Source: an uncultured Mycoplasmataceae bacterium (GTDB lineage: Bacteria; Bacillota_I; Bacilli_A; Mycoplasmatales; Hepatoplasmataceae). Taken from it: DNA of 64,000 nt. The position numbers and the translations under genes are program-made. Location of the stretch: NCBI GenBank assembly GCA_947330515.1, contig CAMZOE010000065.1:1526-65525 (forward strand), given 5' to 3'. Below the pieces are notes generated by a model, which saw nothing but the letters and a program-made list of their open reading frames with translations, made no database searches and was not told the DNA's origin. This document shows positions 6,891 through 63,543 of the stretch, piece by piece. Positions within the stretch are counted from its first letter, which is position 1. The number at the start of each line of letters is the position of its first letter.

Positions 6891-6899
6891 TATTTATCT

Positions 6900-8810
<1,911 letters not shown>

Positions 8811-9960: not shown

Positions 9961-11070
9961 TTAATTCCCAAATGGAAGTATTAATATTTCATGATCTTCT
10001 TTATCTTTTGCTTTTACTAAAAATGGTTCATTATAAGAATTAAATTTTATTTCTATTGTTTTTGTTTCCATACTTTTAACACTTTCAATTAAAAATTTAG
10101 GATTAAAAAGAATATTAAAATTTTCATCATCATCTATTTTATATTTTTTAGTTGTTACAGTAACGTTTCCAATTCCTTCATCTTGTGTTTCAATTTTTAA
10201 TAAATTATTCATTATAAATAATTTAATTGGTGTTTCATCAATAGTTTTAATGTTATTAATTAACATTCCTTGATTAAAAATTGTTAATAAAATATCTTTT
10301 TCAATTTCTAATGTTTTTTGAAATTTTTTTGGAATAAAATTTAAAACATTAGGATAATTATTTTGAAAAATTTTCATATCAATTTGAATATTATTATTAA
10401 TAATAATTAAATCTTCTTCAACGATAAAAAATTTCATCGTTCCTTGTTCTACAATTTTTAATAAATCTTTAATAATAGCAAGTGGAAGGGAAAAAGATGT
10501 TTCTTCAAATATTTCAATATCATCAATTTTTGAATATCCTATTTTAGTATCATCAGTAGCTACTAAAGTAAGTGCATTATTTTTTATTACAAAATTAACA
10601 CTTCTTAGAATTATTCTAGAATTTTTTTCAGTTGCACAAAAAAGAATTGATTTTAAACTTTTTTTAAACTCTTCAGTTTTAATTGAAAAAATTTTTTTAA
10701 AGTTAATAATGCTTTTTGGTAAATATTCAAAATTACCACTTAATAGGTTTAATTTAAACTCTAATGTTTCAGTTTTTATTTTAATAGAATTATTTTTATT
10801 TTTTTCTAAAACTAATTCTTCTTCTGTAATTTTATTTATTGCTTCATTAAATGTTTTTGCTTTAATAAGAAAATTACCAAATTCTTGATTTTCTATATTC
10901 AATGTTGTTTTAATAACTAAATTTTTATTTTTAGCTTTTAAAGTAATTTTATTTTCATATGCTTCTACAAAAATACCTGTATTTTCACTTATTGGATCAT
11001 AATCAGAAACAATATTATTAAGATTATTAATTGTTTTTTTTATTTGGTTGGTTTTTAAAATTAATTTCAT
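9961..11070 (-). CDS. dnaN: DNA polymerase III beta sliding clamp
   Basis: Track ORF of 369 aa, of clamp length and periodicity, in the position dnaA ... dnaN-recF-gyrB. The sequence is strongly diverged, so the call rests largely on synteny. Confidence 0.8.
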   Translation of the reverse strand: MKLILKTNQIKKTINNLNNIVSDYDPISENTGIFVEAYENKITLKAKNKNLVIKTTLNIENQEFGNFLIKAKTFNEAINKITEEELVLEKNKNNSIKIKTETLEFKLNLLSGNFEYLPKSIINFKKIFSIKTEEFKKSLKSILFCATEKNSRIILRSVNFVIKNNALTLVATDDTKIGYSKIDDIEIFEETSFSLPLAIIKDLLKIVEQGTMKFFIVEEDLIIINNNIQIDMKIFQNNYPNVLNFIPKKFQKTLEIEKDILLTIFNQGMLINNIKTIDETPIKLFIMNNLLKIETQDEGIGNVTVTTKKYKIDDDENFNILFNPKFLIESVKSMETKTIEIKFNSYNEPFLVKAKDKEDHEILILPFGN

Positions 11071-11189
11071 ATTATTATTATAACTTTAATTACTACTACT
11101 ATGAAAACTATAACTAGAGAATTTTATGTTAAATTTGAAAAAAATCCTTTATTTAAAGGAAAAAAATGCAAAAAGAAACAATAATATGA

Positions 11190-11418
11190 TGTTGATTAAT
11201 GTTGATAACTATCCAAAATATTTAAAATAAATAATAAAATTTTTTTATTTAAAAAATTAAATGTTCAAAAAAATAATTAAAAATCTAAAAAAAGAAGGTA
11301 AATTGGAGTTTTCAACATGAGTTTTCAACAGGTTTTCAACATTTGTAAAAATAATGTTCAAAACTCAAAAGTTTTCAACATTTTTATCAACATTGTTCAA
11401 AACTCAAATGTTCAAAAC
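11190..11418. promoter_or_regulatory. DnaA-box cluster with an AT-rich tract (candidate oriC)
   Basis: TTTTCAACA occurs 4 times (11309, 11322, 11333, 11372) and TTATCAACA once (11384), all in one orientation. TGTTGATTA (11190) and TGTTGATAA (11200) lie in the opposite orientation. TGTTCAAAAC(TCAAA) occurs 3 times (about 11355, 11394, 11409). A pure A/T tract spans 11216..11262 between the two box groups. Confidence 0.7.
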
Positions 11419-11452
11419 TTTTTTAATCTTTTCATAAAACATTTCAATAAAA

Positions 11453-11486
11453 CAAAAAAAAGAAGCATTTTTGCTTCTTTTTTTGT
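11453..11486. terminator. Rho-independent terminator after the orphan gene
   Basis: Stem AGAAGC / GCTTCT (11461-66 and 11473-78) flanked by A8 and T8 runs, directly downstream of the stop at 11488. Confidence 0.6.
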
Positions 11487-11487
11487 T

Positions 11488-12210
11488 TTATTGAAAATTA
11501 TTTTCTATTAATTTTTTAATAGCAAAAAAATATTTTTCACTTTCATCATCTGCTATTTTTGTTTGATGATTTAAATCATTAGAATCTTTTCTTAAAATAT
11601 TTAAAATTGCTTTTTCTTTTTTTAATATGTATTTATTATCGAAAAGTCACTCAATATATTCTTCAAATTTTAATTGACTTTTATTTTTTCTTGTTTTAAA
11701 ATATTTAGTAAGTTTTTTAGTTTTTACTTCATAATTTTCATCAATTATGTCAAGAATAAATTTATTATATTCTTCTTGATCAAAATCTTTGTCTTTCTTA
11801 ATAAGACATTTATATTTAGGTAAAAATTGCATTACACCATTTACTTTTTGTATCATTGGCATAATTGGAACTTTATCTTTAATACTTAAAATTTCGACAA
11901 TATGAACAATTATTTTACGAGAAAGTAACCCTACAGAATTGTATAAATTAAATTTAAATGCTTCTTCTATTTCTTTAATAAGAATTTCTAAATTTTTTAT
12001 TTCAATTTTAAATTTTTCATATTCTTCTTTGCTTAAAGATTTTTTAATTTCAACATAATTAGTATTAATTTTAATTTTAATATAATTTTCAAGGTTAGTA
12101 ATTTCTTTTTTTAATTCATTATTTTGAAGAAAATTTCTTTCATTTTCTTCATAAGTTTTTTTTATCGAACTTACAACATGTTTTCTAAGTTCATTTATAT
12201 CATTTTTCAT
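11488..12210 (-). CDS. Hypothetical coiled-coil protein (240 aa) lying between dnaA and the DnaA-box cluster
   Basis: Track ORF 11647..12210 ends at a TGA. Reading through adds WLFDNKYILKKEKAILNILRKDSNDLNHQTKIADDESEKYFFAIKKLIENNFQ and reaches TAA at 11488. The start lies 17 nt after the dnaA stop. I recognise no family motif. Confidence 0.6.
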
Positions 12211-12227
12211 ATTGATACCTTAATTAT

Positions 12228-13625
12228 TTATTTTAGTATATTAGCTTTTATTTTAGAAATTGCAATATTTAAATTTTTATCAATTTCTTTTCTTTGTTCG
12301 ATTTTTTTAATACTACTAATTATTGTAGAATGATTTCTATCTATTTTTTTACTAATTTCTTTTAAAGAAAAATTTAAAAGAGTTCTGCTTAGATAAATAG
12401 TTATTTGTCTTGCTAGTAAAATATTTTTATGTCTAGATTTTCCTAAAACTTCTTCTTTGCTAATGTTATAGTAGTCTACAACCGCATTAACAACATTATC
12501 AAAAGTAAGAGTACTTATTTTATTTTTATTGTCTTTAAAGATTGAATTCATTACTTCCATTGTAATGTGATTTACATTTGTATTTATTGTTCAAAAAATT
12601 ACTCGATTAATTGATCCTTCAAGTTCTCTTATATTTGTACTAAAATTTTTTGCCAAATATTCAATACATTCTTCATCAATGAAATTTAAGTCAAAATCAT
12701 GAATTAATTTCATTTTCATCTTTATTATTTTTTTTGCTCCCTCAAAATCTGGGGGCAAAATACCAATAGTTAACCCTTTTTCAAATCTAGTAATAAACCT
12801 TTGTTCGAAATTATCAAGTTCTTGAGGATAAGTATCTGAAGTTATAATTACTTGTTTATCATTTTCAATAAAATTATTAAAAATATGAAAAAATATTTCT
12901 TTTGCTTTTGTTCAAGTTTGAATAAATTGAATATCATCAACCAATAACATGTCATATTTACTATAGTTTTCTTTGATGTATTCTATTTCATCACTAGCAT
13001 TTTTACTTTTTATTGCTTGATGAACTAATTCTCCAAAATCTTTAGCTTGTATGTATTTAACATTGAAATTTGGATGATTTTCAATAGTTTTATTTCCTAT
13101 TGCATGTAATAAATGAGTTTTCCCTAATCCACTTCCTCCATAGATAAAAAGGGGATTTCAAGGTCCTCCAGGTTTTAAACTTACACTAAGAGCGGCAGAA
13201 TAAATCATTTGATTGATGTTCGAAACAACATACGTTTTAAAAGTTAATTTTTCTTTTAAAGAATTTGTTGAATAATCAATTTCTAAATGTTTTTTTTCAA
13301 CAATATTTTTTTTAGTTTTAGTTTCTTTTAATTTTTCTTGTTGTTTGTTATAATCCTCTTTTAAAGTTAAAACAACATTATAATTGCTATTTAAAACATT
13401 ATTAAAAGCTTTTGTAAGTGCTCCTCTAAAACTATTTTCTATAATTGTCATATAGAAAAGAGAATCAACGATAATGATTATTTCTTTGGTCTCTTCGTTT
13501 ATTTGTTTTAATATTGTGTCCTTTGTTACACTAATAAACAATTCTTTTTGTTGTTCATTAATTTCAATTATTTCAAAGACATTAATTAAAATTTCTTTTA
13601 ATTTACTTTTTTCGATAGTATTCAT
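12228..13625 (-). CDS. dnaA: Chromosomal replication initiator protein DnaA (465 aa)
   Basis: Track ORFs 12228..12560 and 13158..13625 are in frame. The hand-read middle gives WNPLFIYGGSGLGKTHLLHAIGN (Walker A), LLVDDIQF and the sensor region. The C-terminus carries the DNA-binding signature GKSRHKNILLARQITIYLSR...SLKEISKKIDRNHSTI. Confidence 0.95.
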
Positions 13626-13931: not shown

Positions 13932-14285
13932 GTGAAAAAAAAATATTCATTAAAACAAAATAATGTCTTTAATGATGTTTTAAAAAAAGGTAAAAAAAAT
14001 CATAGTGAATTTTTTTTACTTTCAAAATCAAGACATCAAAATAATTATGGACATATTAGAATAGGTATTTCTATTCCTAAAAAATTTGGAAATGCTGTTT
14101 TTCGTAATAAACAAAAAAGGCAAATAAAGAATATTATCGATTCTTTTTTTATTGATATTAAAGATAAAAATGTTGATTTAATTATTTTAGCAAAAAAACC
14201 TTTTTTTAGTTTATCATTTATTGAAAAACAAACCATTTTAGAAAAAAAAGTGAAAGAATTTATAATTAATGGCACAAGGACATAA
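13932..14285 (+). CDS. rnpA: Ribonuclease P protein component
   Basis: GTG start 2 nt after rpmH. It is a basic 117-aa protein with the RNR-like motif AVFRNKQKRQIKN, in the conserved position rpmH-rnpA-yidC. Confidence 0.85.
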   Translation: MKKKYSLKQNNVFNDVLKKGKKNHSEFFLLSKSRHQNNYGHIRIGISIPKKFGNAVFRNKQKRQIKNIIDSFFIDIKDKNVDLIILAKKPFFSLSFIEKQTILEKKVKEFIINGTRT

Positions 14286-16671
14286 CTCTTTTTACGAAGA
14301 ATCTTCTACTAAAGGTTCTAATGGTAAAAAGTTAGATTTAAATTGAAAGAAAATACTTAAGTCATCACTTAAAGTTTTTAAGTGAGCAACTTTCCTTTTT
14401 TTAGCAATTACAACGCTATGAGGATGTGTGCAAGAATTTACTATTTCAACTTCAAAACAATTAACACAAGGGCTGGAAACATATAAAAATTCACAGGACA
14501 TTCTTCCTAATCTTTATTATCTTAAGAAGAGTTTTTCTTATACTTCAGCAACAAAAACAGATGGTGAATATATAGATGATGCTTCTAAAGCAGTAACACC
14601 TTTTCAAAATATTTTATATCCTTCTGTTGAAAAAAAAGATGGAAGTGTTAATTTTGCTTCCTTAGAATGAATTGATGCTGATGAAGCACATAGAAGAATA
14701 ACTGATGAATCAGATGTATATGACATTACTCTTCCTAATTTTACTAGTACAGTAACGTTATTAAATTCAGTTGCAGCATTAAATTATTTTTTAATGTTTG
14801 ATCAAAGTCAACAAAAAAATATTAGTGGTGAAGAACAAATGTTTTTACCATTTTATAATGTTGATATTGATACTGGGATAGGAAAATGATTTATCCCTAA
14901 AAAAGCTTCAAAAACAAATGATGTTGAAACTGTTGAAGTTCATCATTTTTTTGATTATAAAAGTTGACTAACAACAGAAGATTTTGATTTAATTAGTACA
15001 AATCCAACGTTAATAAAAGCTATGGAAGCAATTGATGAAGCAATTCTTTATACAAATGCTTATGGTTTTTATAATATTGAATCAATTACTCCAACTGATG
15101 TTATCTTTACAGATGTTGCTTCACCAGATGATTCAATAAATTTCCAAACTATTATTAATAATAATCTTAAAATTATTGATGAAACAGAAAAAGTTCCTGA
15201 TGTAGTTAAAAATTATTATGATAGCTTAGGAACAACTTATACAACATTTGATTATAATAAAATTTTTCAAAATGAAGATGGTGAAGTTAACGCAGGAATT
15301 TCTGTTTTAGTTGATCAAGCAACTAAAAAAAATAATTATGTTCCTAGTTTAGATACTTATAATTATCTTTATAAAGAAGGTGGAATTGATGAAATTCGTT
15401 CAAGAAATTTTGAATCAATAGCACCTACTGAAACAGCTAGAAACACTTATAATAATGATTATTCTCTTGGTAATGTTGGATGATTATTTCTAGATACTGA
15501 AGGTAATAGAATTAAGTTTACTAATTCTAGTGAAGAAGAGTTTTTACAAGGACAAACTCTTGATACAACAATTGGGACTGCTGATGAAATTCATAAGACT
15601 ATTGATTATTGAAATAAAAAATTTATTGATTATTCATATAAAACTGATTTTAATGATAATAATTCATTTTCATTTATTTTAAATAAAAATGAAGAAATAA
15701 ATTATAAAATTGATTTAAGTGAATTTACGTCAAATAATTTTTTAGGATTTACATCCATAAATAACATTGTTGGTAGAGGTGTTGAATATAACCAAAACAT
15801 CTTTTTAACTCCAAAACATTCAATTGAAGAAAGTGGATTGAAAGGATATAACGATAAGAGAATTGCCTTATCTTCTTGAGGTGAAGCATGAACTTATGGG
15901 CCATTTTACGGAATGTTTGTTTATCCAATTTCAATGATTGCAAATTTCCTTTCCGATTTGTTTAAATATGAAAGTATTGGAGCATGATCAGTTCTTATTT
16001 CTGTTTTTATTATTGTCTTCTTCTTTAGAACTTTAGCAGCTTTAATATCTTTAAAAGGAACAAGAAATTCTCAAAAAATGCAAGAATTACAACTTGAAAT
16101 TGCACAAATTAATGCAAAATATGAAATGTATAAAGATAATAAAAATATGAAACAAAGAAAACAAATGGAAATTATGGCATTGTATAAAAAAGAAGGAGTG
16201 TCTCCATTTTCATCATTTTCTAATATTTTCATGACCTTGCCGATTTTCTTAGCAATGTGAACAATTATTTCAACACTACCACTTTATAAAGTTGCAGCAT
16301 TTGGACCATTCTTATTATCTGTTTCACCTTTATTTGGAATTTTTAATATTTTCTTTCAAACAGCAGGTTTATATTTAATCATTTCAATAGTTGTTGGTAT
16401 GCTTCAATTCTTATCATTTAAATTACCAACATATCTTGTTCAAAAAAGAAAAGGTATTAAAAACCTAGATGAACAAACAAAAATTCAAATGAAAAAAAAT
16501 GGAAAAATGATGACAATAATGTTGGTAGTATTTGTTTTCATTGGATTAACAATTCCAACATTATTATCTATTTATTGAATTTTTTCATCATTATTTACAA
16601 TTGTTCAAACGTTAGTTCAACATTATTTCCAAGTAAAAAAAGCGGAGAAAATAAAAAAAGCAAATAGTTAA
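14269..16671 (+). CDS. yidC: Membrane protein insertase YidC, lipoprotein form with a very large N-terminal ectodomain (800 aa)
   Basis: ATG at 14269 overlaps rnpA by 17 nt. The signal peptide and lipobox read FLFLAITTLWGC (Cys53). The frame stays open through 9 hand-checked TGA codons. The conserved core begins near residue 537 with WGEAWTYGPFYGMFVYPISMIANF and includes RTLAALISLKGTRNSQKMQELQ. The stop is TAA at 16669. Confidence 0.85.
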
Positions 16672-36268: not shown

Positions 36269-36631
36269 GGGGATGTAAAGGTTTCGACATTATTAGTTTA
36301 GTTTAAATAAGGGGATAATCTCCCTAAATTCAAATAAATGCAGATAACAATGAAGCATTAGTTGATACATTTATGCTAGATTCAGTACAAGGTGCTGAAT
36401 TTGCATATGCATAAAGCATAGCGTAAATTATTTTAATCAACTCTAAAATATTTTGCTTGTAAGACGAAATAATTTTAGTCGGTAAATATCTTACAATATT
36501 TATGGTGATTTAGCAATACCTTAAGTTTGCTTACAATAAATTTATTTAAAAAATAAAAAAATATAATAAAGTTATTTAAACAAATTGGAATTAATATATG
36601 GACCCGGGTTCGATTCCCGGCATCTCCACCA
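36269..36631 (+). ncRNA. ssrA: Transfer-messenger RNA (tmRNA)
   Basis: The 5' end is GGGGATGTAAAGGTTTCGAC. The 3' tRNA-like end is GGACCCGGGTTCGATTCCCGGCATCTCCACCA. The internal tag frame spans 36340..36414 and encodes ADNNEALVDTFMLDSVQGAEFAYA followed by TAA. It lies directly after smpB. Confidence 0.93.
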
Positions 36632-46067: not shown

Positions 46068-46712
46068 TTAACTTTCATCTTCGCTATCTTCAACGTTTGT
46101 TTCTAATAAAAATTGTTTATTAGCGAATTCTCAATCAACAACTTTTCAAAAATCATTTAAATAATCAATTTTTTTATTTTGATATTTTAAATAATATGAA
46201 TGTTCTCAAAGATCGATTCCAATAATTGGTGTGAATCCTAAAAATCATGGATTATCTTGATTGAATGTTTTAATTATTTTTAAACTATTATTTTTTCTTT
46301 TTACAAATCAAACTCATCCTGAACCAAATAAATTTTTAACTTGTTTTTCAAATTCTTTTTTAAATTCTTCCATTGAATCTCAATATGCTTCGATAGCTTT
46401 TACAACTTCTAAATTTTCATCAAAAGTTTCTTCATTTTTTAATGATTCAAAATAAAAATTATGATTTGCAAGACCTCCACCAAATTCTCTTATTGCGACT
46501 TTGATTTCATCATTATCAATTTTTTGATAATTTTTTAATAAATCAATAATGTTTGGAAAACTTTCATAAATATTTGTTTTTAAAATTACATTATTTAAAT
46601 TTTCTTCATAACTTTTATGATGTTTTTCATAATGTAATTCTATAGTTTTTTTGTCAAGATGCGGTTCAAGCGCATCATATGAATATGGTAATTTTATTCT
46701 TTTATACCCCAT
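46068..46712 (-). CDS. sodA: Fe/Mn superoxide dismutase (214 aa)
   Basis: Track ORF 46380..46712 is extended through several TGA codons to TAA at 46068. The metal ligands look intact: LHYEKHH, GGLANHNFYF and GIDLWEHSYYL. Confidence 0.9.
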
Positions 46713-53761: not shown

Positions 53762-53836
53762 GCCTTGGTAGCTCAGTGGTAGAGCAGCTGGCTGTTAACC
53801 AGTTGGTCACAGGTTCAAATCCTGTTCGAGGCGCCA
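53762..53836 (+). tRNA. tRNA-Asn (GUU)
   Basis: The anticodon loop is CTGTTAA and the T arm is ACAGGTTCAAATCCTGT. CCA is encoded. Confidence 0.9.
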
Positions 53837-53840
53837 TTTT

Positions 53841-53916
53841 GGCCCGTTGGTGAAGCGGTTAACACACATGACTTTCACTCATGCATTCACGAGTTCAAAT
53901 CTCGTACGGGTCACCA
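53841..53916 (+). tRNA. tRNA-Glu (UUC)
   Basis: The anticodon stem-loop is CATGA-CTTTCAC-TCATG. CCA is encoded. Confidence 0.9.
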
Positions 53917-53933
53917 TTTTCCATTTTTTTAAT

Positions 53934-54009
53934 GGGACGTTAGCTCAGTTGGGAGAGCATCTGCCTTACAAGCAGAGGGTCACAGGTTCAAGTCCTGTAC
54001 GTCCCACCA
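53934..54009 (+). tRNA. tRNA-Val (UAC)
   Basis: The anticodon loop is CTTACAA. CCA is encoded. Confidence 0.9.
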
Positions 54010-54071
54010 TTATTTTTTAAAATAATAAATTAAAATTTAAACATCGACACTGAATATTTTTTTTAAAATCC

Positions 54072-54147
<76 letters not shown>

Positions 54148-54152
54148 TAATT

Positions 54153-54237
54153 GCGGGTGTGGCGGAATTGGTAGACGCGCTAGACTTAGGATCTAGTAAC
54201 TTTTGTTGTGGGGGTTCGAGTCCCTTCACCCGCACCA
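54153..54237 (+). tRNA. tRNA-Leu (UAG)
   Basis: The anticodon loop is CTTAGGA, the variable arm is long, and the discriminator is A. CCA is encoded. Confidence 0.9.
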
Positions 54238-54287
54238 ATTATTTTTAAAGGATTTTAAAAAAGAAAATAGAAATTTAGGATTTAACT

Positions 54288-54364
54288 GCGCCTGTAGCTC
54301 AATTGGACAGAGCATTTGACTACGGATCAAAAGGTTACGAGTTCGACTCTTGTTAGGCGCGCCA
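54288..54364 (+). tRNA. tRNA-Arg (ACG)
   Basis: The anticodon stem-loop is TTTGA-CTACGGA-TCAAA. CCA is encoded. Confidence 0.9.
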
Positions 54365-54375
54365 AATTATTAATA

Positions 54376-54452
54376 CGGAAAGTAGCTCAGCTTGGCAGAG
54401 CACTTGGTTTGGGACCAAGGGGTCGCAGGTTCAAATCCTGTCTTTCCGACCA
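54376..54452 (+). tRNA. tRNA-Pro (UGG)
   Basis: The anticodon loop is TTTGGGA. CCA is encoded. Confidence 0.9.
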
Positions 54453-54457
54453 TTAAT

Positions 54458-54533
54458 GGGGTGATAGCTCAGTTGGTAGAGCACTTGTCTTGCACACAAG
54501 AGGTCGCCGGTTCGATCCCGGTTCACTCCACCA
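54458..54533 (+). tRNA. tRNA-Ala (UGC)
   Basis: The acceptor GGGGTGA carries the G3:U70 identity pair. The anticodon loop is CTTGCAC. Confidence 0.9.
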
Positions 54534-54546
54534 TCATTATTGTTTT

Positions 54547-54623
54547 GGCGAGATAGCTCAGTTGGCTAGAGCACGTGGTTCATACCCACGGGGTCGTGAG
54601 TTCGAGTCTCTCTCTCGCTACCA
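54547..54623 (+). tRNA. tRNA-Met, elongator (CAU)
   Basis: The anticodon loop is TTCATAC. Its position in the block matches the known Met-Ile order. Confidence 0.8.
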
Positions 54624-54627
54624 ATTA

Positions 54628-54704
54628 GGTCCTTTAGCTCAGTTGGTCAGAGCAACCGGCTCATAACCGGTTGGTCGTAGGTTCGAGTCCTACAAGGACC
54701 ACCA
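54628..54704 (+). tRNA. tRNA-Ile2 (CAU, lysidine-modified type)
   Basis: The sequence GGTCCTTTAGCTCAGTTGGT.AGAGC...GGCTCATAACC...GTCGTAGGTTCGAGTCCTACAAGGACCACCA closely resembles Firmicute tRNA-Ile2 as recalled from memory. tilS is present in this window. Confidence 0.75.
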
Positions 54705-54743
54705 ATAATTATTATTCAACTATATATATTTAAATAAATAAAT

Positions 54744-54836
54744 GGAGACGTACCCAAGTCCGGTTGAAGGGGTCAGTCTTGAAAACTGAGAGTGGTCGTG
54801 AGGCCAGCGGGGGTTCGAATCCCTCCGTCTCCGCCA
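54744..54836 (+). tRNA. tRNA-Ser (UGA)
   Basis: The anticodon loop is CTTGAAA, the variable arm is long, and the discriminator is G. Confidence 0.9.
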
Positions 54837-54847
54837 TTTATTATTAT

Positions 54848-54924
<77 letters not shown>

Positions 54925-55000
54925 GGTCCCGTGGTGTAGTGGTTAACATGCCTCTCTGTCACAGAGGAGATCGCGAGTTCAATTCTCGTCGGGACCGCCA
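54925..55000 (+). tRNA. tRNA-Asp (GUC)
   Basis: The anticodon loop is CTGTCAC. It starts on the base immediately after the CCA of tRNA-fMet. Confidence 0.9.
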
Positions 55001-55004
55001 TTTT

Positions 55005-55080
55005 GGTCCGATAGCTCAGTCGGTAGAGCATGTGATTGAAGCTCACAGTGTCGGCGGTTCAATTCCGTCTCGGACCACCA
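55005..55080 (+). tRNA. tRNA-Phe (GAA)
   Basis: The anticodon loop is ATTGAAG. CCA is encoded. Confidence 0.9.
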
Positions 55081-55111
55081 TTTCAAATAATCATTTTCCG
55101 TTATTTGAAAT

Positions 55112-55202
55112 GGAGATATACCCAAGAGGCCTAAGGGGCTGGTTTGGAAAATCAGTAGTAGTCATTAGATTAGCAAGGGTTCGAATCCCTTTATCTCCGC
55201 CA
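55112..55202 (+). tRNA. tRNA-Ser (GGA)
   Basis: The anticodon stem-loop is CTGGT-TTGGAAA-ATCAG. The variable arm is long, the T arm is AAGGGTTCGAATCCCTT, and the discriminator is G. Confidence 0.8.
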
Positions 55203-55230
55203 CGTTATTGAAATATAAAAGTTAGTTTCT

Positions 55231-55270
55231 TTTTTTATAAATAAAACATAAAATTTTTATTTATAAAAAA
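55231..55270 (+). terminator. A/T-only 16-bp palindrome after the tRNA array (weak terminator candidate)
   Basis: TTTTTTATAAATAAAA (55231-46) pairs perfectly with TTTTATTTATAAAAAA (55255-70). Confidence 0.35.
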
Positions 55271-55313: not shown

Positions 55314-56981
55314 ATGAATGAATGAAAAACAACATTAAAATTATGGGAAGATAACATTGATAAAGATTCATTGTTAGAGTTAAAAAAACTAGAACAAAAA
55401 GAACAAAAAGAACGCTTCAACGAAGATTTAAATTTCGGAACTGCTGGAATAAGAGCGTTAATGGGAATAGGAACAAATAGGATAAATAAATATACTATTA
55501 ATCGTTTTATTAAAGCCTATGGACTTTTTTTAAAAGAAAATTTTTCTTCTCTTGAATTAAAAGAAAAAGGTGTTTTAATTTTTCATGATAATAGAAAAGA
55601 TGGAAAAATATTTTCAGAATATGCTGCAAGTGCATTATTATCTTTGGGTATTAAAGTTACTTTTTCTTATTTAAATCAATTGCAACCAACCCCTTTATTA
55701 TCTTATATGGTAAGAAATAAAGATTATATTGGTGGTTTAAATATTACTGCCTCTCATAATTTTAAAGATTTTAATGGAATAAAGTTTTACACTTCTAAAG
55801 GTTCTCAAATTGATTTAAACGATTCTAAAGAAATTAAACATCATTTCGATCAATTAGGTTATTTTGATACTGAAGCAAAAATTAACTTAAAAACAGTTAA
55901 ATATCTTCCAAAGAATTTTGAAAATTATTATCTAGAAGAAGTAATTTTTCCTATGATTAAGAAAACAAAATTTCATGAAAAAATATTGTTTTCTCCTCAA
56001 CATGGAACTTCTTTAGGAATGGTTAAAAAAATAGCAAAAGAGATGAATATAGATTTATCTTTAGTTAAGACTCAATCATTTCCTAGTGAAACTTTTGAAA
56101 ATACATTAAATCCAAACCCTGGAACAATAGAAGCTTTTAATGAAGCGGTTCCTATAGCTATTAATCAAGACATTTCAACTATAATTTCTATCGATCCTGA
56201 TGGTGATAGATTAGGATTAATGATAAAAGATGATAATAATTGAATTCATTTAAATGGTAATGAACTTGCTATTTTAATGCTATTTTATTTAATTAAAACA
56301 ACTAGAGCATCAAAATTAAAAAATTCTTTTATTGTTAAATCTATTGTAACTTCTGATCAAGGAACAAGGATTGCTAATTTTCATAATATAAAAGTATATG
56401 AAACTTTAACAGGATTCAAACATTTAGCAAATAAATCTCTTGAAATACAGGAAGATGAAGTAAGACGGGGAATTAAACCTAAAAAAATATCTAACTCATT
56501 ATTAATTTATGAAGAGAGTTATGGTTCAATTATAAATAACATGGTTGCAGATAAAGATGCTTTCCAGGCGTTTGTGTTAGTTGTACAAATGTTAAACTAT
56601 TTTAAAAGTAAATATTCTAAAATTTCTGAAGTTTTAAATACAATTAATCAAAAATATGGACATACAAAATCCATTCAATTTACTAAAGAAATTTCTTCTA
56701 TTACTGAGAGCGAAGAATATTTATTGAATATTACTAAAAGTATTGGTCATAAATTAGAAGATGTTAAACATGTAACTCTTGATTATATTGAAGATTTAGA
56801 AAAACCAAGAATAAAAAAACAATTACCAACAAAAGGAATTAAAATTTGATTAAAAGGTGGCTCATGGGTTGCAATTAGACCATCAGGCACAGAACCAATT
56901 ATCAAATTTTATCTAGATTTATTTAATTTAGATAATGAAACAGAGAATAAATTAAAAGAAGTTTTTGAATCATTTTTTTAA
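55314..56981 (+). CDS. Alpha-D-phosphohexomutase (phosphoglucomutase/phosphomannomutase, PgcA/ManB type), 555 aa
   Basis: ATG at 55314 gives MNEWKTTLKLWEDNID. The sequence shows FGTAGIRALMG, the active-site serine loop TASHNFKDFNGIKFY, the metal loop DPDGDRLG, and the C-terminal phosphate loop RPSGTEP. In-frame pieces are joined by TGA codons. Confidence 0.88.
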
Positions 56982-57012: not shown

Positions 57013-57086
57013 GGTGCGATAGCCAAACGGTAAGGCATGGGACTGCAACTCCCTGACTGAGGGTTCGAATCCGTCTCGCACCTCCA
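57013..57086 (+). tRNA. tRNA-Cys (GCA)
   Basis: The acceptor GGTGCGA/TCGCACC is perfect and the anticodon loop is CTGCAAC. The T stem GAGGG/CCGTC contains one G-G mismatch at positions 51:63. CCA is encoded. Confidence 0.8.
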
Positions 57087-57207: not shown

Positions 57208-57597
57208 AAAAGAAATTAGTAGATATATTATTAAGTATTATTTTGTTTAAGTTTACCTTCTTTTATTTTTGTTGATCTTTTTTTGATTTTAGATTAAGTT
57301 TTTTGTGTATTTAAGTTACCTTCTTTGAAAATACAATCTTTCTTTTATTTAAGAGAACACAAAACTTTTATATCCATAATGAGTTTCTTTTTTTATAGAA
57401 ACCATTATGGATTTTTTCAAGAAAATTTTATTATAATAATAAGTTTCTAAATAAGTAATCATAAGCTTTGTCTGTTTAATTAACTCCTAAATTTTCATAA
57501 AATCATTTAAATTGTTCTCTTTTTGAAATACTAGAACTAACATTTTTTACTTTTTACGTTTAATAAATATTTAATTATCACTGTTATTTATAAAAAT

Positions 57598-57632
57598 AAA
57601 ACGTCACATAAATAATGTGACGTTTTATTTTT
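57598..57632 (-). terminator. Rho-independent terminator of the murP-murQ-nagA-like operon
   Basis: Perfect 12-bp stem AAAACGTCACAT / ATGTGACGTTTT with a 5-nt loop, 28 nt downstream of the TAG at 57660. Confidence 0.7.
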
Positions 57633-57659
57633 ATTTAGTTTATTTTTTGAATAATAATT

Positions 57660-59279
57660 CTATGAAACTAATTCTATTTCTCTTGTTCCTTCATATTGTT
57701 CAAATTCTTTAAAGTTTTTGATATTATTTAGTCCGAGAATAGTGTTAGTTTTTTTCATTTTTGAAACTGTGTATCCATCTTTTATTGTTTCTAAAATTTC
57801 ATAATTATCACTACTAATTATATTGATGTCTGCATCATAACCAACTTCTATTTTACCTTTGGTTTTTAAACCTAAGAAATTTGCTTGATTAGTTGATGTA
57901 ACTTTTATTGCTTCTGCTAATGTTCCATTGAATTCATTTATTCATTTTTTAAAAGCTTGATGCATTGAAATTGAAGAACCTACAATTTTTTCATTTTTAA
58001 AGATAACATTATCTTTCATAGAAATTTCTTCATTAGAATTTGTATAAATTCCTTCTTTTAATCCTTTCATATAAAATGAATTAGTAATTAAAAGAATTTT
58101 ATCTATGTTTTTTAAAGATTTAATTGTTTTAATATTATTTTCATTAATAATATTTTTATCATTTATAATTTCAACAAATATTTCTTGATTAATAATCGCA
58201 TTTTTATTTAATGAAATTTCATTTGTTCCAAATTCTGTAATTGGCATAATAGAATTTATTCCTAAACTTCCAATTTCTTTTTCATTTAAAGCATTAAAAG
58301 AAGCGACAATTTTAATTTCTTTTCCTTGAAGATTGTTATTTAATGGAGAAGATAGTTTTAATGGATTTTCAGTCAACATAGAAATTTTTATTTTATCATT
58401 GTCAATAATTTCATTAATTTTATCTTCATCTAAAGAATTACCATTTACAAATTCTTTAATGTTTTCTAAATTTCATCCAATTAAAGATGCACCATTAAAT
58501 TTTTTATTTACATAATATGAAAATTTTTCTAAGTTATCAATATCTAAAGTTTTTGTAGAAGCTACAACACTAGTAATTCCTTCTTCTATAGAAATTTTAT
58601 TTAGATAAAAATTAAGTTTTTCTTCATCGCCATTATTTCAATCAAAGTTATATGAACCTTGTGTGTGGATATCAATAAATCCAGGAATAATATATTGATT
58701 AAATTCTTCTTCATTTTTTATATTTGTCGCTGGTTTAATCGATTTAATTTTGTTTCCTTTTATTGAAACAATAATTTTTTCTCCATTTTCATTTAAACCT
58801 TTTATTTTTTTAACTTTATTTTCTTTTACTAAGATTTGTTTTTCTTCTATTATATTTTTTTTATCATCTTTATATCTTGAAAAGAAGATCATTCCTAATA
58901 GTCAAATAACAATAAAGGTAAAAGAGGTTCAAAAAAATGCAATTACTTTTCTATCTCAAATAAGATCTCCACCATCTGCCGGTGAATGTCCTGTTCAAAC
59001 AGTTGTTATTGTTATAAACATTATTGGTAACAAGAAAAAAATGAAAAGTAATAAACTATGTTTAAAAGAAGTAAACAAATAATATCCTTTTCTTAAATCT
59101 TTATCATCCTTTTTTTCAAAACGTTCATGAGATTTATTATAAGTTTTTAATAATGAAGATTTCATGTTTTTAAAAAATTCATTTTTTTCTTTTTTCTTTT
59201 TATCAGAATTATTTTCTTCTGAATTTATGTCAGAAGTATCTTTTTCTTCAAGAAGTTCTTCTTTGTCTTTACTCATCAT
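57660..59279 (-). CDS. Membrane-anchored NagA-like (N-acetylglucosamine-6-phosphate deacetylase family) protein, about 539 aa; catalytic motifs appear degenerate
   Basis: Track ORFs 58995..59282, 58638..58892 and 57942..58379 are all in one frame. I hand-read every codon across 58893..58994 and found only TGA codons, with no TAA or TAG. The N-terminal ~130 aa comprise an acidic/basic region plus 2 TM helices (SLLLFIFFLLPIMFITITTVW and VIAFFWTSFTFIVIWLLGMIFF). The remainder aligns by eye to NagA, with PGFIDIHTQG, KILLITNSFYMKGLKEGIY, VGSSISM and GKIEVGYDADINII. The first ATG is at 59279 and a TTG lies at 59282. The stop is TAG at 57660. Confidence 0.7.
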
Positions 59280-60183
59280 CAATTACCTTTCTTAAATATC
59301 CATTATTATTATTTAATAATTGTTGTGCATCTTCTTTTGATAAATCTTTGATTATCATTACTGAAGATAATTTGCATGAATAATTTGTTTCTTCTAATGT
59401 TTTTTTAATTAGTTCTTCATCTGCACTAGTAATTTCAAAAACAATATTTATACATCTTTGAATTAACTTAGCATTTGCCGGTTTTACATCAATCATTAGA
59501 TTTTTATAAACTTTTCCTAATCTAACCATTATTCCTGTTGATAAGGTATTTAAAACTAATTTTTGTGCAGTCCCTGATTTCATTCTTGTTGAACCAGTAA
59601 TTGCTTCAGGACCAACGACGGCATCTACTGTAATGTTAGCAATCTTTCCTATTTGAGAATTTGCTGAAGTTGAAATAGACATTGTTTTGGCACCTATTTT
59701 ATTTGCATATTCTAATCCAGCAACTACATATGGTGTACGTCCACTAGCGGCAATTCCAACAAGGAAATCTTTTTTACTGAATTTAATATCATTTAAATCT
59801 TTAATGATTTCATCCGCACTATCTTCAGCATTTTCTACTGCATTTCTTAAAGCATAATCTCCACCAGCAATTAACCCAATAAACATATCGCTTGGAGCAT
59901 TATATGTTGGAGGAATCTCACTAGCATCAAGAACTCCAAGTCTTCCTGAAGTACCTGCCCCAATATAAATGATTCTTCCACCATTTCTTATTGTTGCTTC
60001 TCCAATTGTAATCGCTTCTCCAATTTGAGTTAATTCTTTTTCAACCGCTAGTGCAACAAGTTTATCTTCTTCGTTAATTAATCTTGCAATTTCTTTTGGT
60101 TCAGCAATATCTATATTAATAGTATTGTTATTTCTTTGTTCTGTCGAGATTTTGCTTAAATCTATTTTTTTTTCTTTATTCAT
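59269..60183 (-). CDS. murQ: N-acetylmuramic acid 6-phosphate etherase
   Basis: It is a SIS-domain protein with IYIGAGTSGRLGVLDASEIPPTY and NAVENAEDS, and it has the length and profile of MurQ. Confidence 0.88.
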   Translation of the reverse strand: MNKEKKIDLSKISTEQRNNNTINIDIAEPKEIARLINEEDKLVALAVEKELTQIGEAITIGEATIRNGGRIIYIGAGTSGRLGVLDASEIPPTYNAPSDMFIGLIAGGDYALRNAVENAEDSADEIIKDLNDIKFSKKDFLVGIAASGRTPYVVAGLEYANKIGAKTMSISTSANSQIGKIANITVDAVVGPEAITGSTRMKSGTAQKLVLNTLSTGIMVRLGKVYKNLMIDVKPANAKLIQRCINIVFEITSADEELIKKTLEETNYSCKLSSVMIIKDLSKEDAQQLLNNNNGYLRKVIDDE

Positions 60184-60186
60184 AAT

Positions 60187-61797
60187 TTATGATAAATCCA
60201 TTCCTTTTGTTCCTATTAATTTCATAAATAAGAATCCACTTACATATGAAATAATGATTCCTACTAAATATATTCCCATCCCAGCAAGCGCATGAGTTGT
60301 GGTTTCACCTGTTTTTACCATTGTCATCATTGGTATGGCTAATAAACCTGAAGGTCCAAACATAGAAACTAATCCAACATTAATGTTAAAGAATTGTGAA
60401 AGAACTCCTAAAAAGAATCCTCCTACTGCTCCACCAAGCATTGCTGCAAGGAAAGCTTTAGGTCTAGGTAAAGTAATTCCATAAATAATTGGTTCACCAA
60501 TTCCAAAGAAACCTGGAATAATTGCTCCTTTGATATCATTTTTTAATTTACCATCTTTTTCAGCTTTCAAGTAAAGTGCAATTGCAACTCCTACTTGTCC
60601 TGCTCCTGCCATTGCAAGAATAGCAAATAAACCATTAACTCCAGTTTCACTTAAAGCTATCATATACACTGGAACAAATCCTTGATGTACACCGAACACT
60701 ACTGCTAACAAGAATATTCCTGCTAATAATGCTGCTCCAAAAGCATTTTGATAAAGTGAAATAAATAATTTACTTATTAATAAGAATAGAATTCCACTTA
60801 AAGGAATAATGATAAAGTATGATACTACAAGTAAAACTAAGAAAGTTAACACTGAAGTAAATACCATATCAAAAGATGGTGGAACTATTTTACGGATTTG
60901 TTTTTCAACTGGAATTGAAACTAAAGCCATTATCATTGCTCCTATAATTGAACCAGAAGCATAGCTTAATGATCAACCTGCCTCATTATAAGCAGGTCTA
61001 AAACCTAATGTTAATCAATTGGTTCCGGGGTTTTTAATATGAATTCCAAGAAAATTAAATCCTGTTACTATGTCAGCGTTTTTTATTGGAACAAATGGTG
61101 CAGTAACTATTCCTGCAAATGCGGGAACAAATAATACTGCCATTAGTCCTCCGGTTGCCCCTGTACCACCAAATACTTCAGCTGTTCTTCAACCAACTAC
61201 TATAATAAACGCATCTTTTCACGCATTTAGTAATGCTTGAAAGAAGTTAAATCATGATTCGTCAACTGGATTTCCTCAAAGTGTTGTTATAGGATCGTAA
61301 CTACCAAATGATTGAATCATTCCAGCAATTCCTCCAATAATTCCTGCTCCAATAAAAGCAAAAATTAAAGGTGCAAATATTTTAGCAAACTTTGCTAAAA
61401 AAACTTGTACACCGGATGTATTTTTTTCTTTTTGTTTTTCTTTATTTATTTTAGTGATAGTTTCTAAATCTAAATTTTCCATATCGTCTAATGAAGCTTC
61501 ATCTTCGCCTTCATCTTCTGAAGTTAAAGATACACTAGTGATATCGAAATTTTTTCCGACTTCGTCTGCAACTTTTTGCACAAATCCAGGTCCTAGAATA
61601 ATTTGAAGCTCTGTACCAGATTCATTTACTCCAAGTACATTTTGTACTTTCTTAAGTTCATCGATGTTTATTTTACCACTATCTTTAGCAGTAACGCGAA
61701 GTCGAGTCATACAATTTGTATAAGTCTTAATATTCTCTTCGCCACCGATTTTTTCGACGATGTCTATGGCAGTTTGTTTTGGATCTTTTTTTGCCAT
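60187..61797 (-). CDS. murP: PTS EIIBC component, sucrose/trehalose/MurNAc subfamily (B-then-C order); MurNAc-specific by context
   Basis: Track ORFs 60187..60936 and 61276..61797 are in frame, and the gap was hand-read (TGA codons only). The EIIB active site is NCMTRLRV. An acidic linker DEGEDEASLDDMENLD is followed by a polytopic EIIC domain. There is no EIIA domain. The stop lies 3 nt upstream of the murQ start. Confidence 0.8.
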
Positions 61798-61938: not shown

Positions 61939-62012
61939 ATTTTAGTATATACAAATTTTAATAAAAAGTATAAATGATTAATACATTTACTTTTTTATTA
62001 AAGATAATATTC

Positions 62013-62046
62013 AAAAAAATAACTCTTTAAAAGAGTTATTTTTTTG
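62013..62046 (-). terminator. Terminator after the coiled-coil/nuclease-like gene
   Basis: A perfect 37-nt palindrome TCAAAAAAATAACTCTTTTAAAGAGTTATTTTTTTGA. Confidence 0.65.
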
Positions 62047-62070
62047 AATATTATAAATTATGATGAAATA

Positions 62071-63543
62071 TTAGTTTTCAACTTTTTCAATATTTTTTAC
62101 AATTTTTTTAATTTTAAATTCTTGAAGTTTTGTTTCAATTGTTTTTAAGTTACTTACTCCTAAAGCTTTTTGAGCATTAGCAATAATTTTTGAAGATTTT
62201 TTTTGAATTACATCTGCATCTTTTTCGATTGCTTCTAAATTTTTTCTAATGTTAGAAATAGAATTATTGATAAGTTCATTTTTCATTGTTTCAAATTCAT
62301 CAAGAATTTCTTGTTTTGCTTTAAAGTTTATTTGTTCTGAATGTAATTGTTTTTTACTAATTTCTAATTTATATAAAATATGCATAAAGTTAGTAAAAAA
62401 TTCCGGTCTAACAACATACATATTTTCATATTCAGAAACTCTTTTAATATAAAAACGATCTTCTGTTTCAAGTTCAGAAACAAGAATAGAATAATCACCA
62501 TGATATTTTTTAGTATCTTTTGATAGTTTTTCATAGTGATCTTTATTTTTTTTCTTTGTTGAAGAATTTGGATTTTCACTTTTTGCTTCAATAATTATTT
62601 TAGAAAGTCTTGAACCATCATCTGCAAGAATTTCAAAGAAAAAATCAGGTTTTTCACCTACATCAGTTGTTTTTCCTCATTTTATATTTTCTAAATGTGA
62701 TAATTGATTAGAATACATTGTTTGAATTTCATTTTCTAATTCTTCACCAATTCTTTTAATATTAAGACGAGAACCTTTAGTTCTTAAAATTTCTAATTCT
62801 CTATCGATTGTATTTTTTTCTTCAGTAATTTTTGCTAGTATAGCATCTTTTTCTTCAATAATTTTTGCTAGTGCTGCATCTTTTTCTTCTTTATTTTTTA
62901 AATTATTTATTTCAATATCTCTATTTTTAACATCTTCAATAGTTTTGATTTGATTAGTTAAATAATTTATTTTTTCATTTAATTCTTCTTTGATTCTACT
63001 TTGAGCAATGATTATCTCATTTGCTTTTTTTTCTTTTTCTTGTTCAAGAGTTTGACTTAATTGATTAATTTTTAAATTAAGACTTTCAGATATTTTACTT
63101 TTTTCTACTTCAATATCTTTGTTTTTAATTTCTTCATTAATTTTAATTTGATTAGTTAATTGATTTATTTTTTCATTTAACTCTTCTTTAATTTTATTTT
63201 GTGCAATGATTATTTCATTTTCTTTATTTTCTTTATTTTTATTTAATTCATACTCTAACTTTTGAATTTTGATTAAGTTATCTTCTTTTAGTTTTTTTAA
63301 TTCTAAGAACTCAACACTATTTTTAAATTCATGTTCAAATTTCATTTTTTCTATTTCAATTTGTTCTTGTAATTTTTCTTCAAAAATTTTATCTTTTCTA
63401 AGATTAATTTCATCATTTAATGTTGAAAAATCAATTTCATTAATTTCTTTTAGAGAAAAATAATCACCATTTTCAACAGAATTATCATCAATTTGAAATT
63501 CTAATTTTTCACTATTTAAAATTTTTATTTTTACTTTTTTCAT
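62071..63543 (-). CDS. Coiled-coil protein with a C-terminal PD-(D/E)xK-like nuclease motif (DUF2130-like architecture), 490 aa
   Basis: Track ORFs 62677..63543 and 62071..62421 share a frame and are joined by the TGA at 62677. The hand-read linker is WGKTTDVGEKPDFFFEILADDGSRLSKIIIEAKSENPNSSTKKK...YSILVSELE. That stretch contains a D ... E-x-K arrangement (ILADDG ... IIIEAKSE). Confidence 0.6.
62815..62886 (-). repeat. 33-bp tandem repeat, about 2.2 copies
   Basis: It encodes EEKDAALAKII-EEKDAILAKIT-EEK. Confidence 0.75.
62908..63219 (-). repeat. 198-bp (66-codon) period direct duplication inside the coiled-coil gene
   Basis: Copy A (63106..63219) encodes NEIIIAQNKIKEELNEKINQLTNQIKINEEIKNKDIEV. 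Copy B (62908..63021) encodes NEIIIAQSRIKEELNEKINYLTNQIKTIEDVKNRDIEI. The DNA identity between copies is visibly high. Confidence 0.8.

Follow-up and report, generated by a model that had tools for sequence, protein, structure and literature searches.

A putative membrane-anchored NagA pseudoenzyme, fused to a small membrane protein, in the murP-murQ operon of a wall-less Mollicute

The DNA analyzed here, referred to as the window, is a 64,000-nucleotide stretch (GC content, 24%) of contig CAMZOE010000065.1 from an uncultured Mycoplasmataceae bacterium (GenBank assembly GCA_947330515.1). Its reverse strand carries a three-gene operon consisting of murP, which encodes a permease of the phosphotransferase system (PTS); murQ, which encodes N-acetylmuramic acid (MurNAc) 6-phosphate etherase; and a last gene, the subject of this report, in which an N-terminal module with two transmembrane segments (TM1 and TM2; 2-TM) runs in frame into a domain resembling NagA, the N-acetylglucosamine 6-phosphate (GlcNAc-6-P) deacetylase. 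The best NCBIfam match of MurP is the MurNAc IIBC model NF007152, at 425.7 bits and below its 516-bit cut-off; MurQ passes both TIGR00274 (376.2 bits; cut-off, 302) and NF009222 (390 bits; cut-off, 255). The start of the fusion gene overlaps the murQ stop codon (TAA, 59271-59269) by 11 nucleotides (nt), and the PTS proteins EI and HPr and an EIIA-Glc are encoded within the same window. Gene content and order fit the MurP-MurQ-NagA-NagB pathway, which leads from MurNAc via MurNAc-6-P, GlcNAc-6-P, and GlcN-6-P to Fru-6-P, and utilization of MurNAc by wall-less Mollicutes has already been noted for Spiroplasma and Hepatoplasmataceae (PMC3762197, PMC10928387). The operon as such is ordinary; it differs from the pathway inferred for those organisms in that the place of NagA appears to be taken by an inactive, membrane-bound paralogue. 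The bearer of the operon is a wall-less, gut-symbiont-type bacterium, a low-GC Mollicute, and the best match of its GyrB in a pattern-based, non-exhaustive scan of the genome collection was that of 'Candidatus Tyloplasma litorale' (60% identity).

The fusion gene comprises 539 codons with seven in-frame TGA codons (codons 95, 108, 117, 126, 214, 269, and 446), and the first TAA or TAG in its frame is the stop codon itself, TAG at 57662-57660. Translation of TGA as tryptophan (table 4) is proven to be the right code for the window, because Trp is written 54 times as TGA and twice as TGG in 12 window genes, and because TGA occupies universally conserved Trp positions in GyrB (HHLVWEIVDN and QLWETTM) and SodA. 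TGA codons of the NagA-like part are likewise aligned with Trp residues of homologues (NFDW, IGW, and KKW). In DNA of this composition, a frame of 129 codons would be open by chance with P = 6e-5 and one of 539 codons with P = 2e-18. An identical 538-residue product was called with table 4 in three assemblies (P0001 in Logan run ERR7998031, and P0227 and P0228 in NCBI assemblies), and the junction of the two parts is unchanged in a contig 99.98% identical to the window and also in a strain approximately 99% identical. An earlier inspection of the letters, hereafter the sequence-only reading, had proposed that this frame is interrupted by TGA only and that a 95-residue open reading frame (ORF) of the annotation track is the N-terminus of the NagA-like protein. 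Codon-by-codon reading agrees with both proposals: the short ORF is a table-11 fragment of the fusion gene ending at codon 95, TGA encodes Trp, and codons 1-135 are selected in frame, as described below. Recurrence of the junction in three assemblies or strains speaks against a stop gained or lost there by sequencing error. The same reading had placed an ATG (M130) in the middle of TM2 and without a good ribosome binding site; the codon does lie inside TM2, near its C-terminal end rather than in its middle, and its only upstream AGGA directly abuts the ATG with zero spacer. Because of this position, the absence of a Shine-Dalgarno spacer, and in-frame purifying selection on the upstream codons, M130 is unlikely to be the start of the gene. 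No ATG, GTG, or TTG is present where canonical NagA proteins start (residues ~145-157 of the fusion protein).

Table 1. Positions of the operon, the parts of the fusion gene, related loci in other genomes (L numbers), and other features of the window
Feature	Position	Strand	Basis or remark
murP, PTS EIIB-EIIC permease, first operon gene	60187..61797	-	Pfam PTS_EIIB + PTS_EIIC
murQ, second operon gene	59269..60183	-	3 nt after murP
Fusion gene, third and last in operon	57660..59279	-	N-terminal extension, 2-TM module, linker, degenerate NagA fold, C-terminal tail
Shine-Dalgarno-like GAAAGG	59286..59291	-	In murQ 3' end, 6 nt before ATG 59279
Acidic/basic low-complexity extension, codons 1-38	59166..59279	-	Absent from free-standing small proteins
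Module homologous to small 2-TM protein, codons 39-138	58866..59165	-	Hydropathy, profile match, synteny
TM1, residues 76-94	59054-58998	-	Hydropathy
Loop, residues 96-110		-	Hydropathy
TM2, residues 112-133	58946-58881	-	Hydropathy
Internal ATG (M130), could give soluble product	58890..58892	-	Inside TM2; AGGA abuts ATG
NagA-fold domain, codons 155-505	57765..58817	-	(beta/alpha)8 barrel + beta-sandwich; degenerate active site
Palindromic (bidirectional) intrinsic terminator	57590..57634	.	20-pair stem + T-run, 26 nt past stop; closes operon
Terminator of upstream DUF2130 gene	62006..62052	-	Delimits operon 5' side
Promoter-like hexamers	61939-61910; 61845-61816		Consensus matches only
Small 2-TM ORF after murQ, L087	8893-9192		
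Small 2-TM ORF after murQ, L089	8893-9186		
Small 2-TM ORF after murQ, L114	4009-4275		
Small 2-TM ORF after murQ, L116	6843-7130		
Hepatoplasma-type 'NagA', L002	6600-7730		
Hepatoplasma-type 'NagA', L005	2105-3409		
Gene pair upstream of murP, L089	5245-6419		
Gene pair upstream of murP, L114	399-1526		
Gene pair upstream of murP, L116	3158-4321		
Sod_Fe gene near murPQ operon, L089	11295-11855		
DUF2130 protein gene	62071-63543	-	Just upstream of operon
Fe/Mn superoxide dismutase gene	46068-46712	-	7/7 Trp written TGA
16 tRNA genes (Asn to Ser), clustered	53762-55202	+	
Table-4 'ORFs'	54370-55244		Several are artefacts on tRNAs
PGM_PMM gene	55314-56981		Phosphoglucomutase/phosphomannomutase family
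tRNA-Cys	57013-57086		Just downstream of PGM_PMM gene
tmRNA	36269-36631		
YidC-like gene	14269-16671	+	After rnpA
dnaA-dnaN	9961-13625	-	
recF-like ORF	8986-9957		Candidate
gyrB-gyrA	4320-8807	-	

Pfam Amidohydro_1 (PF01979) was matched at 43.9 bits against a gathering threshold of 25, and the match covers residues 441-503 only, in the C-terminal part; TIGR00221, the best NCBIfam model, was matched in two stretches at 104.8 bits, below the NagA equivalog cut-off of 225.65, and relatives scored 169.5, 218.1, 226.5, 248.3, and 261.9 bits with this model. The fold itself was predicted with high confidence. An AlphaFold2 (AF2) model had a mean predicted local distance difference test (pLDDT) score of 80.8, with values mostly between 85 and 98 in the NagA-like domain, and the top 33 matches of a Foldseek search of the Protein Data Bank (PDB) were all NagA, with target-normalized TM-scores of 0.71-0.79 and a shared two-domain amidohydrolase architecture. 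All solved NagA structures can be superposed on the model (TM-score ~0.78; E from 1e-22 down to 4e-24), 2VHL, 1O12, and 1YMY being the best matches.

Functional residues were compared in an L-INS-i alignment with 2VHL, 1O12, 6FV3, and 17 homologues, with Bacillus subtilis (Bs) numbering taken from the 2VHL chain. Two of about ten functional positions survive, namely the first His of the HxH motif (Bs H63, here H205) and the metal-bridging Glu (Bs E136, Escherichia coli (Ec) E131, here E272). The second His of HxH (Bs H65) is replaced by Q207 and the transition-state His (Ec H143) by S282; of the two catalytic-metal ligands, Bs H202 (Ec H195) corresponds to F328, and Bs H223 (Ec H216) to a gap or, by the AF2 strand register, to P346. 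The phosphate-binding N-A-M that follows H223 is deleted, the phosphate-binding HHR/HR loop is absent, the sugar-binding His of DGxH (Bs H258) is I377, and the catalytic Asp (Bs D281, Ec D273, Ms D267) is N400 within ITNS. The active-site half of the barrel is the most eroded segment, and it contains in-frame deletions. From two NagA motif alignments, both of which were reproduced by HMMER against 2VHL, the sequence-only reading had named four of these losses: HxH to H-T-Q, the His of GH(T/S), the His of THxxNAM (HLYNAM), and the Asp of TDS/TDA to Asn (ITNS). All four were recovered with MAFFT as well as with L-INS-i, Phe standing at the GH(T/S) position; replacement of the DGxH His by Ile and loss of the phosphate-binding NAM and HR loop go beyond them. 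Residues 140-539 contain just two His (H205 and H440) and no Cys, compared with 9-16 His in homologues, and because of this scarcity the loss of the site is independent of alignment register, so that misregistration by eye does not account for it. Glu349 was considered as a stand-in for the missing His on the basis of an HMMER pairing of ITEF with ITHF; this candidate was unsupported, as that place is taken by Pro346 when the strand register of the AF2 model is followed.

The consequences of such losses can be judged from mycobacterial NagA, in which every single mutant at the corresponding positions was inactive and removal of metal unfolded the protein (PMC6016474). The catalytic Asp is essential in NagA, yet an Asp mutant still binds substrate, and QxN in place of HxH is tolerated, as in the functional E. 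coli-type NagA (PMC6016474). Substrate contacts in MSNagA are made by the His of DGxH, the Asn and Ala of T-H-x-x-N-A-M, and the Arg and His of the HR loop, and NagA active sites are built at the dimer interface (PMC6016474). PDB entry 2P53, the E. coli D273N protein with bound N-acetyl phosphonamidate, carries the same Asp-to-Asn change as N400. Because the two catalytic-metal His residues, three further His residues (the second one of HxH, the transition-state one, and the sugar-binding one), the phosphate loop, and the Asp have all been lost, the domain is almost certainly not a GlcNAc-6-P deacetylase. It shares with NagA (EC 3.5.1.25; 2VHL, 1O12, and 1YMY/2P50) the two-domain fold, placement in an amino-sugar catabolic operon, the motifs IIPGFIDIH, LLIT-x-S, VGS, TSTNQA, and G-x-I-x-x-G-Y-D-A-D, and a position nested in the Mollicute NagA clade. 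It differs in scoring less than half of the family cut-off, in lacking the catalytic-metal His pair, the Asp, the DGxH His, and the phosphate loop, and in possessing a membrane-anchoring N-terminus of about 150 residues that is unique among 1.84 billion representative proteins. As the protein scores below the family cut-off and lacks the full set of metal ligands, the catalytic Asp, and the sugar-phosphate contacts of a functional NagA, it is best called, from its sequence, a pseudoenzyme of the amidohydrolase superfamily that descends from NagA and has been joined to a small membrane protein; the loss of catalytic residues together with purifying selection corresponds to the operational definition of a pseudoenzyme.

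A canonical nagA is absent from the 64-kb window. The search for a second copy, which the earlier inspection had proposed, led to a 3-kb contig (L003) on which a canonical NagA gene (P0003; 37% identical, with all catalytic residues) adjoins nagB. This contig has 25% GC and TGA as Trp, and was obtained from run ERR7998031, as was the contig nearly identical to the window; P0003 is found in an NCBI assembly as well. L003 is probably part of the genome that holds the window, and housekeeping deacetylation probably falls to this canonical pair. The suggestion that the fusion protein is a membrane-tethered, probably inactive amidohydrolase rather than a housekeeping deacetylase is accordingly in keeping with the residue losses, the predicted membrane hairpin, and a canonical nagA in the same run.

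Hydropathy and positive-inside prediction agree with the N-terminal layout recognized earlier, that is, a charged segment followed by TM1, a short loop, and TM2. The acidic loop TGHSPADGGDLIWDR separates the two membrane segments, Lys-rich stretches flank both, and a helical hairpin was modeled here by AF2. Under the positive-inside rule, these Lys-rich flanks place both ends of the hairpin in the cytoplasm (N-in/C-in), so the NagA-like domain is predicted to be cytoplasmic and to lie against the membrane from inside the cell. The tether is not novel or ad hoc, since it matches a small protein of Mollicute murPQ operons. These proteins were found by inspecting the neighborhoods of the closest MurQ homologues (59-65% identity), where information came from four other low-GC genomes (L087, L089, L114, and L116). 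Each of them has, after murP-murQ, a 2-TM ORF of 88-99 residues, the start of which overlaps the murQ stop by 1-17 nt and is preceded by a GGAGGT-like Shine-Dalgarno sequence inside murQ; in at least L087 and L089, TGA must be read as Trp to read the ORF through. The small proteins share a basic N-terminus, a TM1 with the motif (I/L)PI-x-FT-x-x-ST, a short Gly-containing loop, and a TM2 followed by an FF-x-E-(Y/F)-K end. Pfam and NCBIfam models returned only sub-threshold noise from other membrane proteins for the small proteins and the N-terminal module, and no description of a murQ-coupled small protein family was found in the libraries and literature searched.

A profile built from the four small proteins, with the query left out, matched residues 39-138 of the fusion protein end to end (profile positions 1-94) at 27.8 bits. 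None of 2000 segment-wise shuffles that preserve the layout reached this score (maximum, 26.7; mean, 0.1; standard deviation, 5.8), and the best other ORF of the window scored 4.2 bits. The fusion gene also has the genomic setting of the family: it lies directly after murQ on the same strand and is translationally coupled to it, with an overlapping start and a Shine-Dalgarno sequence in the 3' end of murQ. Likeness extends to the basic N-terminus, (I/L)PI-x-F in TM1, the Gly loop, TM2, and FF-x-(E/R)(Y/F)K. Compared with the free-standing proteins, the fusion has 38 extra N-terminal residues and a loop longer by seven residues, and it runs without a stop into the NagA fold. The small-protein alignment in the profile search begins at M39; the 38 residues before it form a low-complexity extension specific to this lineage, the first 21 of them with pLDDT values under 50. 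At the junction, the small-protein end FFSRYKDDKK is followed directly by the NagA N-terminus KQILVKENKVKKIKGL (compare MKKILNKIQNKTLIKGL), which reads KQILVKENKVKKIKGLNENGEKI against MKKILNKIQNKTLIKGLNYDGEKI of P0002. From these features, the gene very probably arose when the gene of the small membrane protein coupled to murQ was fused by read-through to a nagA paralogue lying downstream.

A scan of metagenomes seeded with MurQ gave 23 loci from distant bacteria, in which murP, murR, anmK, or nagZ-like genes follow murQ and no small 2-TM ORF was found, and the small ORF seems specific to the Mollicute-type operons inspected here. The small-protein half goes together with murP-murQ genetically in a total of five lineages and, we infer, is most simply an accessory of the MurNAc transport and catabolic unit. 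Two further searches returned nothing: blastp of the N-terminus against the window ORFs, and a word-seeded protein search with residues 1-156, which missed even the identical P0001 and is therefore uninformative, negatives of such searches being unreliable for short, low-complexity, or TM-rich queries.

About 30 nearest homologues of the NagA-like part were inspected, and all possess the canonical residues and lack an N-terminal extension. Among 1.84 billion representative proteins, residues 1-140 are covered only by the protein's own cluster, and no orthologue of the fusion beyond the same species (P0001, P0227, and P0228) was found in these or in 5.8 billion clustered proteins; all other matches start at query residues ~140-195 and are canonical. 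The whole protein found no relative in the genome collection of GTDB representatives, which therefore does not include its species, and the assembly and run accessions were not found in the literature searched. In a neighbor-joining tree the fusion protein nests in the Mollicute NagA clade, beside Hepatoplasma-type sequences, of which P0005 clusters with the NagA of Ca. Hepatoplasma crinochetorum, and it has the longest terminal branch (0.77 vs. 0.09-0.39; a rough estimate by this method alone, with a risk of long-branch effects). An origin as a recent paralogue of P0003 was not borne out by this tree, in which placement is uncertain.

Two observations concern these relatives themselves. The Hepatoplasma-type 'NagA' proteins (P0004, P0005, and P0079) have HTY for HxH and GSFFDR for GAHxEE, score 169.5 bits with TIGR00221 (below the cut-off), and are encoded between ileS and the rplQ-rpoA cluster, adjoining two unannotated genes and not nagB; they may be diverging paralogues in their own right. 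The Mollicute subclade nearest the query (P0078, P0002, P0003, P0006, P0004, P0005, and P0079) lacks the HHR/HR loop, which in solved NagA structures supplies the phosphate-binding Arg and His from the neighboring subunit, and has K-Y-G-T-E-G-D or a similar sequence at this site, with all metal and catalytic residues kept.

Comparison with the strain GCA_947313775.1 revealed nine synonymous and four conservative nonsynonymous differences (I/V, Q/E, and V/I) in the fusion gene, that is, a ratio of nonsynonymous to synonymous rates (dN/dS) of 0.10 (P = 1e-4 against neutrality), which is indistinguishable from the 0.02-0.14 of neighboring genes (murP, murQ, ligA, and others). Codons 1-135 alone differ by five synonymous changes and one conservative nonsynonymous change (P = 0.001), and this bias shows that they are translated in this frame. 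Approximately 4.3% of single-base changes in the gene would create TAA or TAG, yet the frame is open, with in-frame insertions and deletions only, after the observed divergence, which is incompatible with neutral decay. Both halves are under purifying selection, and hence the protein is used.

We consider it likely that the gene encodes a fused NagA pseudoenzyme, anchored in the membrane and facing the cytoplasm, that acts as a non-catalytic partner or regulator at the MurNAc permease. Fusion of the small murQ-coupled membrane protein gene with a nagA paralogue would have joined both parts in one polypeptide; the cytoplasmic ends of the hairpin would hold the NagA fold at the inner face of the membrane, and the small-protein half would place it next to MurP. 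There, the dead fold may offer a non-catalytic surface for docking or regulation: it might pair with active NagA or with MurQ so that uptake is coupled to downstream catabolism, or it might gate the action of the small protein on MurP. Pairing with the active paralogue is a possibility made attractive by the construction of NagA active sites at the dimer interface. The superfamily already offers a precedent: Pseudomonas aeruginosa has a catalytically dead member, pseudo-dihydroorotase (pDHO/PyrC'), that is required for Pseudomonas aspartate transcarbamoylase (ATCase) (PMC7053772). The resemblance is one of logic and not of orthology: pDHO is a soluble protein of wide occurrence whose assembly with ATCase has been demonstrated by experiment, whereas the fusion protein is predicted to be membrane-anchored and is known from sequence in one lineage.

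Several points weigh against this proposal. H205, Q207, E272, E349, and N400 could in principle form another metal or acid-base site. Homology of the module was derived from a four-sequence profile with a narrow margin over shuffled sequences (27.8 vs. 26.7 bits) and leans also on synteny. The NagA-like half alone shows four synonymous to three nonsynonymous changes (P = 0.03), the dN/dS estimate draws on 13 substitutions in total, and the only known carriers of the protein are three near-identical strains of a single species-level lineage. The tetranucleotide correlation of the nagA-nagB contig with the window is 0.981, the same as for other Mollicute contigs and non-discriminating among AT-rich Mollicutes. 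Finally, the scaffold or partner mechanism is drawn by analogy.

A more specific version of the partner idea, which we put forward tentatively, as a less likely reading, treats the 2-TM protein as an accessory subunit of the MurNAc PTS permease that recruits NagA by physical contact, the fusion being a 'Rosetta stone' for this association; the dead NagA, a duplicated copy attached to the 2-TM protein in this lineage, would heterodimerize with active NagA, and a MurP-MurQ-NagA metabolon kept at the membrane would channel toxic GlcNAc-6-P. Were this true, it would represent pseudoenzyme-mediated substrate channeling at a PTS transporter.

The protein might instead sense a ligand, the dead pocket binding GlcNAc-6-P or MurNAc-6-P and the hairpin feeding back on MurP in the manner of product inhibition or inducer exclusion. 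Retention of substrate binding by an Asp mutant of NagA (PMC6016474) and fusion to a membrane protein genetically tied to murP-murQ are consistent with such a role, and with no DNA-binding or other output domain present, regulation would have to occur by protein-protein contact at the membrane. We regard this as unlikely, in that the NAM Asn and Ala, the DGxH His, and the HR-loop Arg and His are lost and canonical binding of GlcNAc-6-P is doubtful; because these sugar-phosphate contacts are gone, a GlcNAc-6-P sensor appears weaker than a scaffold or partner.

Some members of the amidohydrolase superfamily work without metal, and the domain could be a neofunctionalized enzyme acting on another N-acyl sugar, which might lie close to the membrane or carry no phosphate, either with a site composed of H205, Q207, E272, E349, and N400 or in a metal-free manner. 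The fold and barrel-closing motifs are well kept with high pLDDT, the domain is under purifying selection with one HxH His and the bridging Glu retained, E. coli-type NagA works with QxN for HxH (PMC6016474), and the phosphate-binding HR motif is missing even from the closest clade of canonical proteins. However, the His pair of the beta-metal, the Asp, and the transition-state His have been replaced by Phe, Pro or a gap, Asn, and Ser, which are unable to substitute for them, with no spare His or Cys in the domain. Every tested single mutant at these positions was dead (PMC6016474), and erosion with in-frame deletions is concentrated in the active-site half of the barrel, which renders a new activity quite improbable.

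Very improbable, too, is the idea that only the small membrane protein half functions, and that the nagA paralogue, redundant beside a canonical nagA after an accidental read-through fusion, is being lost as a passenger. The destroyed active site, restriction of the fusion to a single lineage, marginal selection on the NagA half alone (P = 0.03), and the longest branch of the clade would fit this idea. Against it, approximately 400 codons have remained open with in-frame indels only at roughly 60% divergence from the nearest relatives, the probability of encountering no stop being below 1e-7 at 0.3 substitutions per site; the fold is still predicted with high confidence, and the domain is intact in all three strains, with conservative differences. 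Separate production of the 94-138 N-terminal codons and of a NagA part started at M130, or else an assembly error, is scarcely credible, with a small probability left for an additional internal start, for although an in-frame ATG exists at 58892 and relatives have free-standing small proteins, the junction recurs in three independent assemblies or strains, no usable Shine-Dalgarno sequence precedes M130, no start codon lies at residues ~145-157, and the intervening TGA codons are conserved and read as Trp genome-wide.

No NagA-family pseudoenzyme, inactive NagA, or membrane-anchored NagA was described in the literature and libraries searched, and the fusion protein would be a clean example of a natural bacterial pseudoenzyme under selection. 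Automatic annotation would split the gene (table 11) or call it 'N-acetylglucosamine-6-phosphate deacetylase', with the result that metabolic reconstructions of these symbionts would assign to the murPQ operon an enzyme that is not encoded there. The fusion also provides a first functional hint for a conserved, unannotated small membrane protein, which it ties physically to the NagA step. The scope of these statements is one uncultured, species-level lineage, and the function is proposed by inference.

Genes upstream of the operon vary among relatives. In the window, the neighboring DUF2130 gene encodes a protein of 490 residues with a long Lys/Glu-rich, repeat-like N-terminal half; its position is kept in the strain L086, whereas L004 has a gene of the DUF2130 family in its rnpA/yidC region. 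In three relatives (L089, L114, and L116), murP is preceded by a gene for a 277-280-residue protein, with a faint SIS match in one of them, and then an ORF of 72-78 residues without a family; together these two might regulate the operon, and no counterpart lies between the DUF2130 gene and murP in the window.

Among the other features of the window listed in Table 1, the superoxide dismutase gene belongs to a family uncommon in Mollicutes, and a Sod_Fe gene is found near the murPQ operon in L089 as well. The YidC-like protein, whose gene contains 13 TGA codons, is unusually long at 800 residues; in L004 the corresponding protein has 917. With dnaA-dnaN followed by a recF-like ORF and gyrB-gyrA, the window spans the chromosomal origin region.

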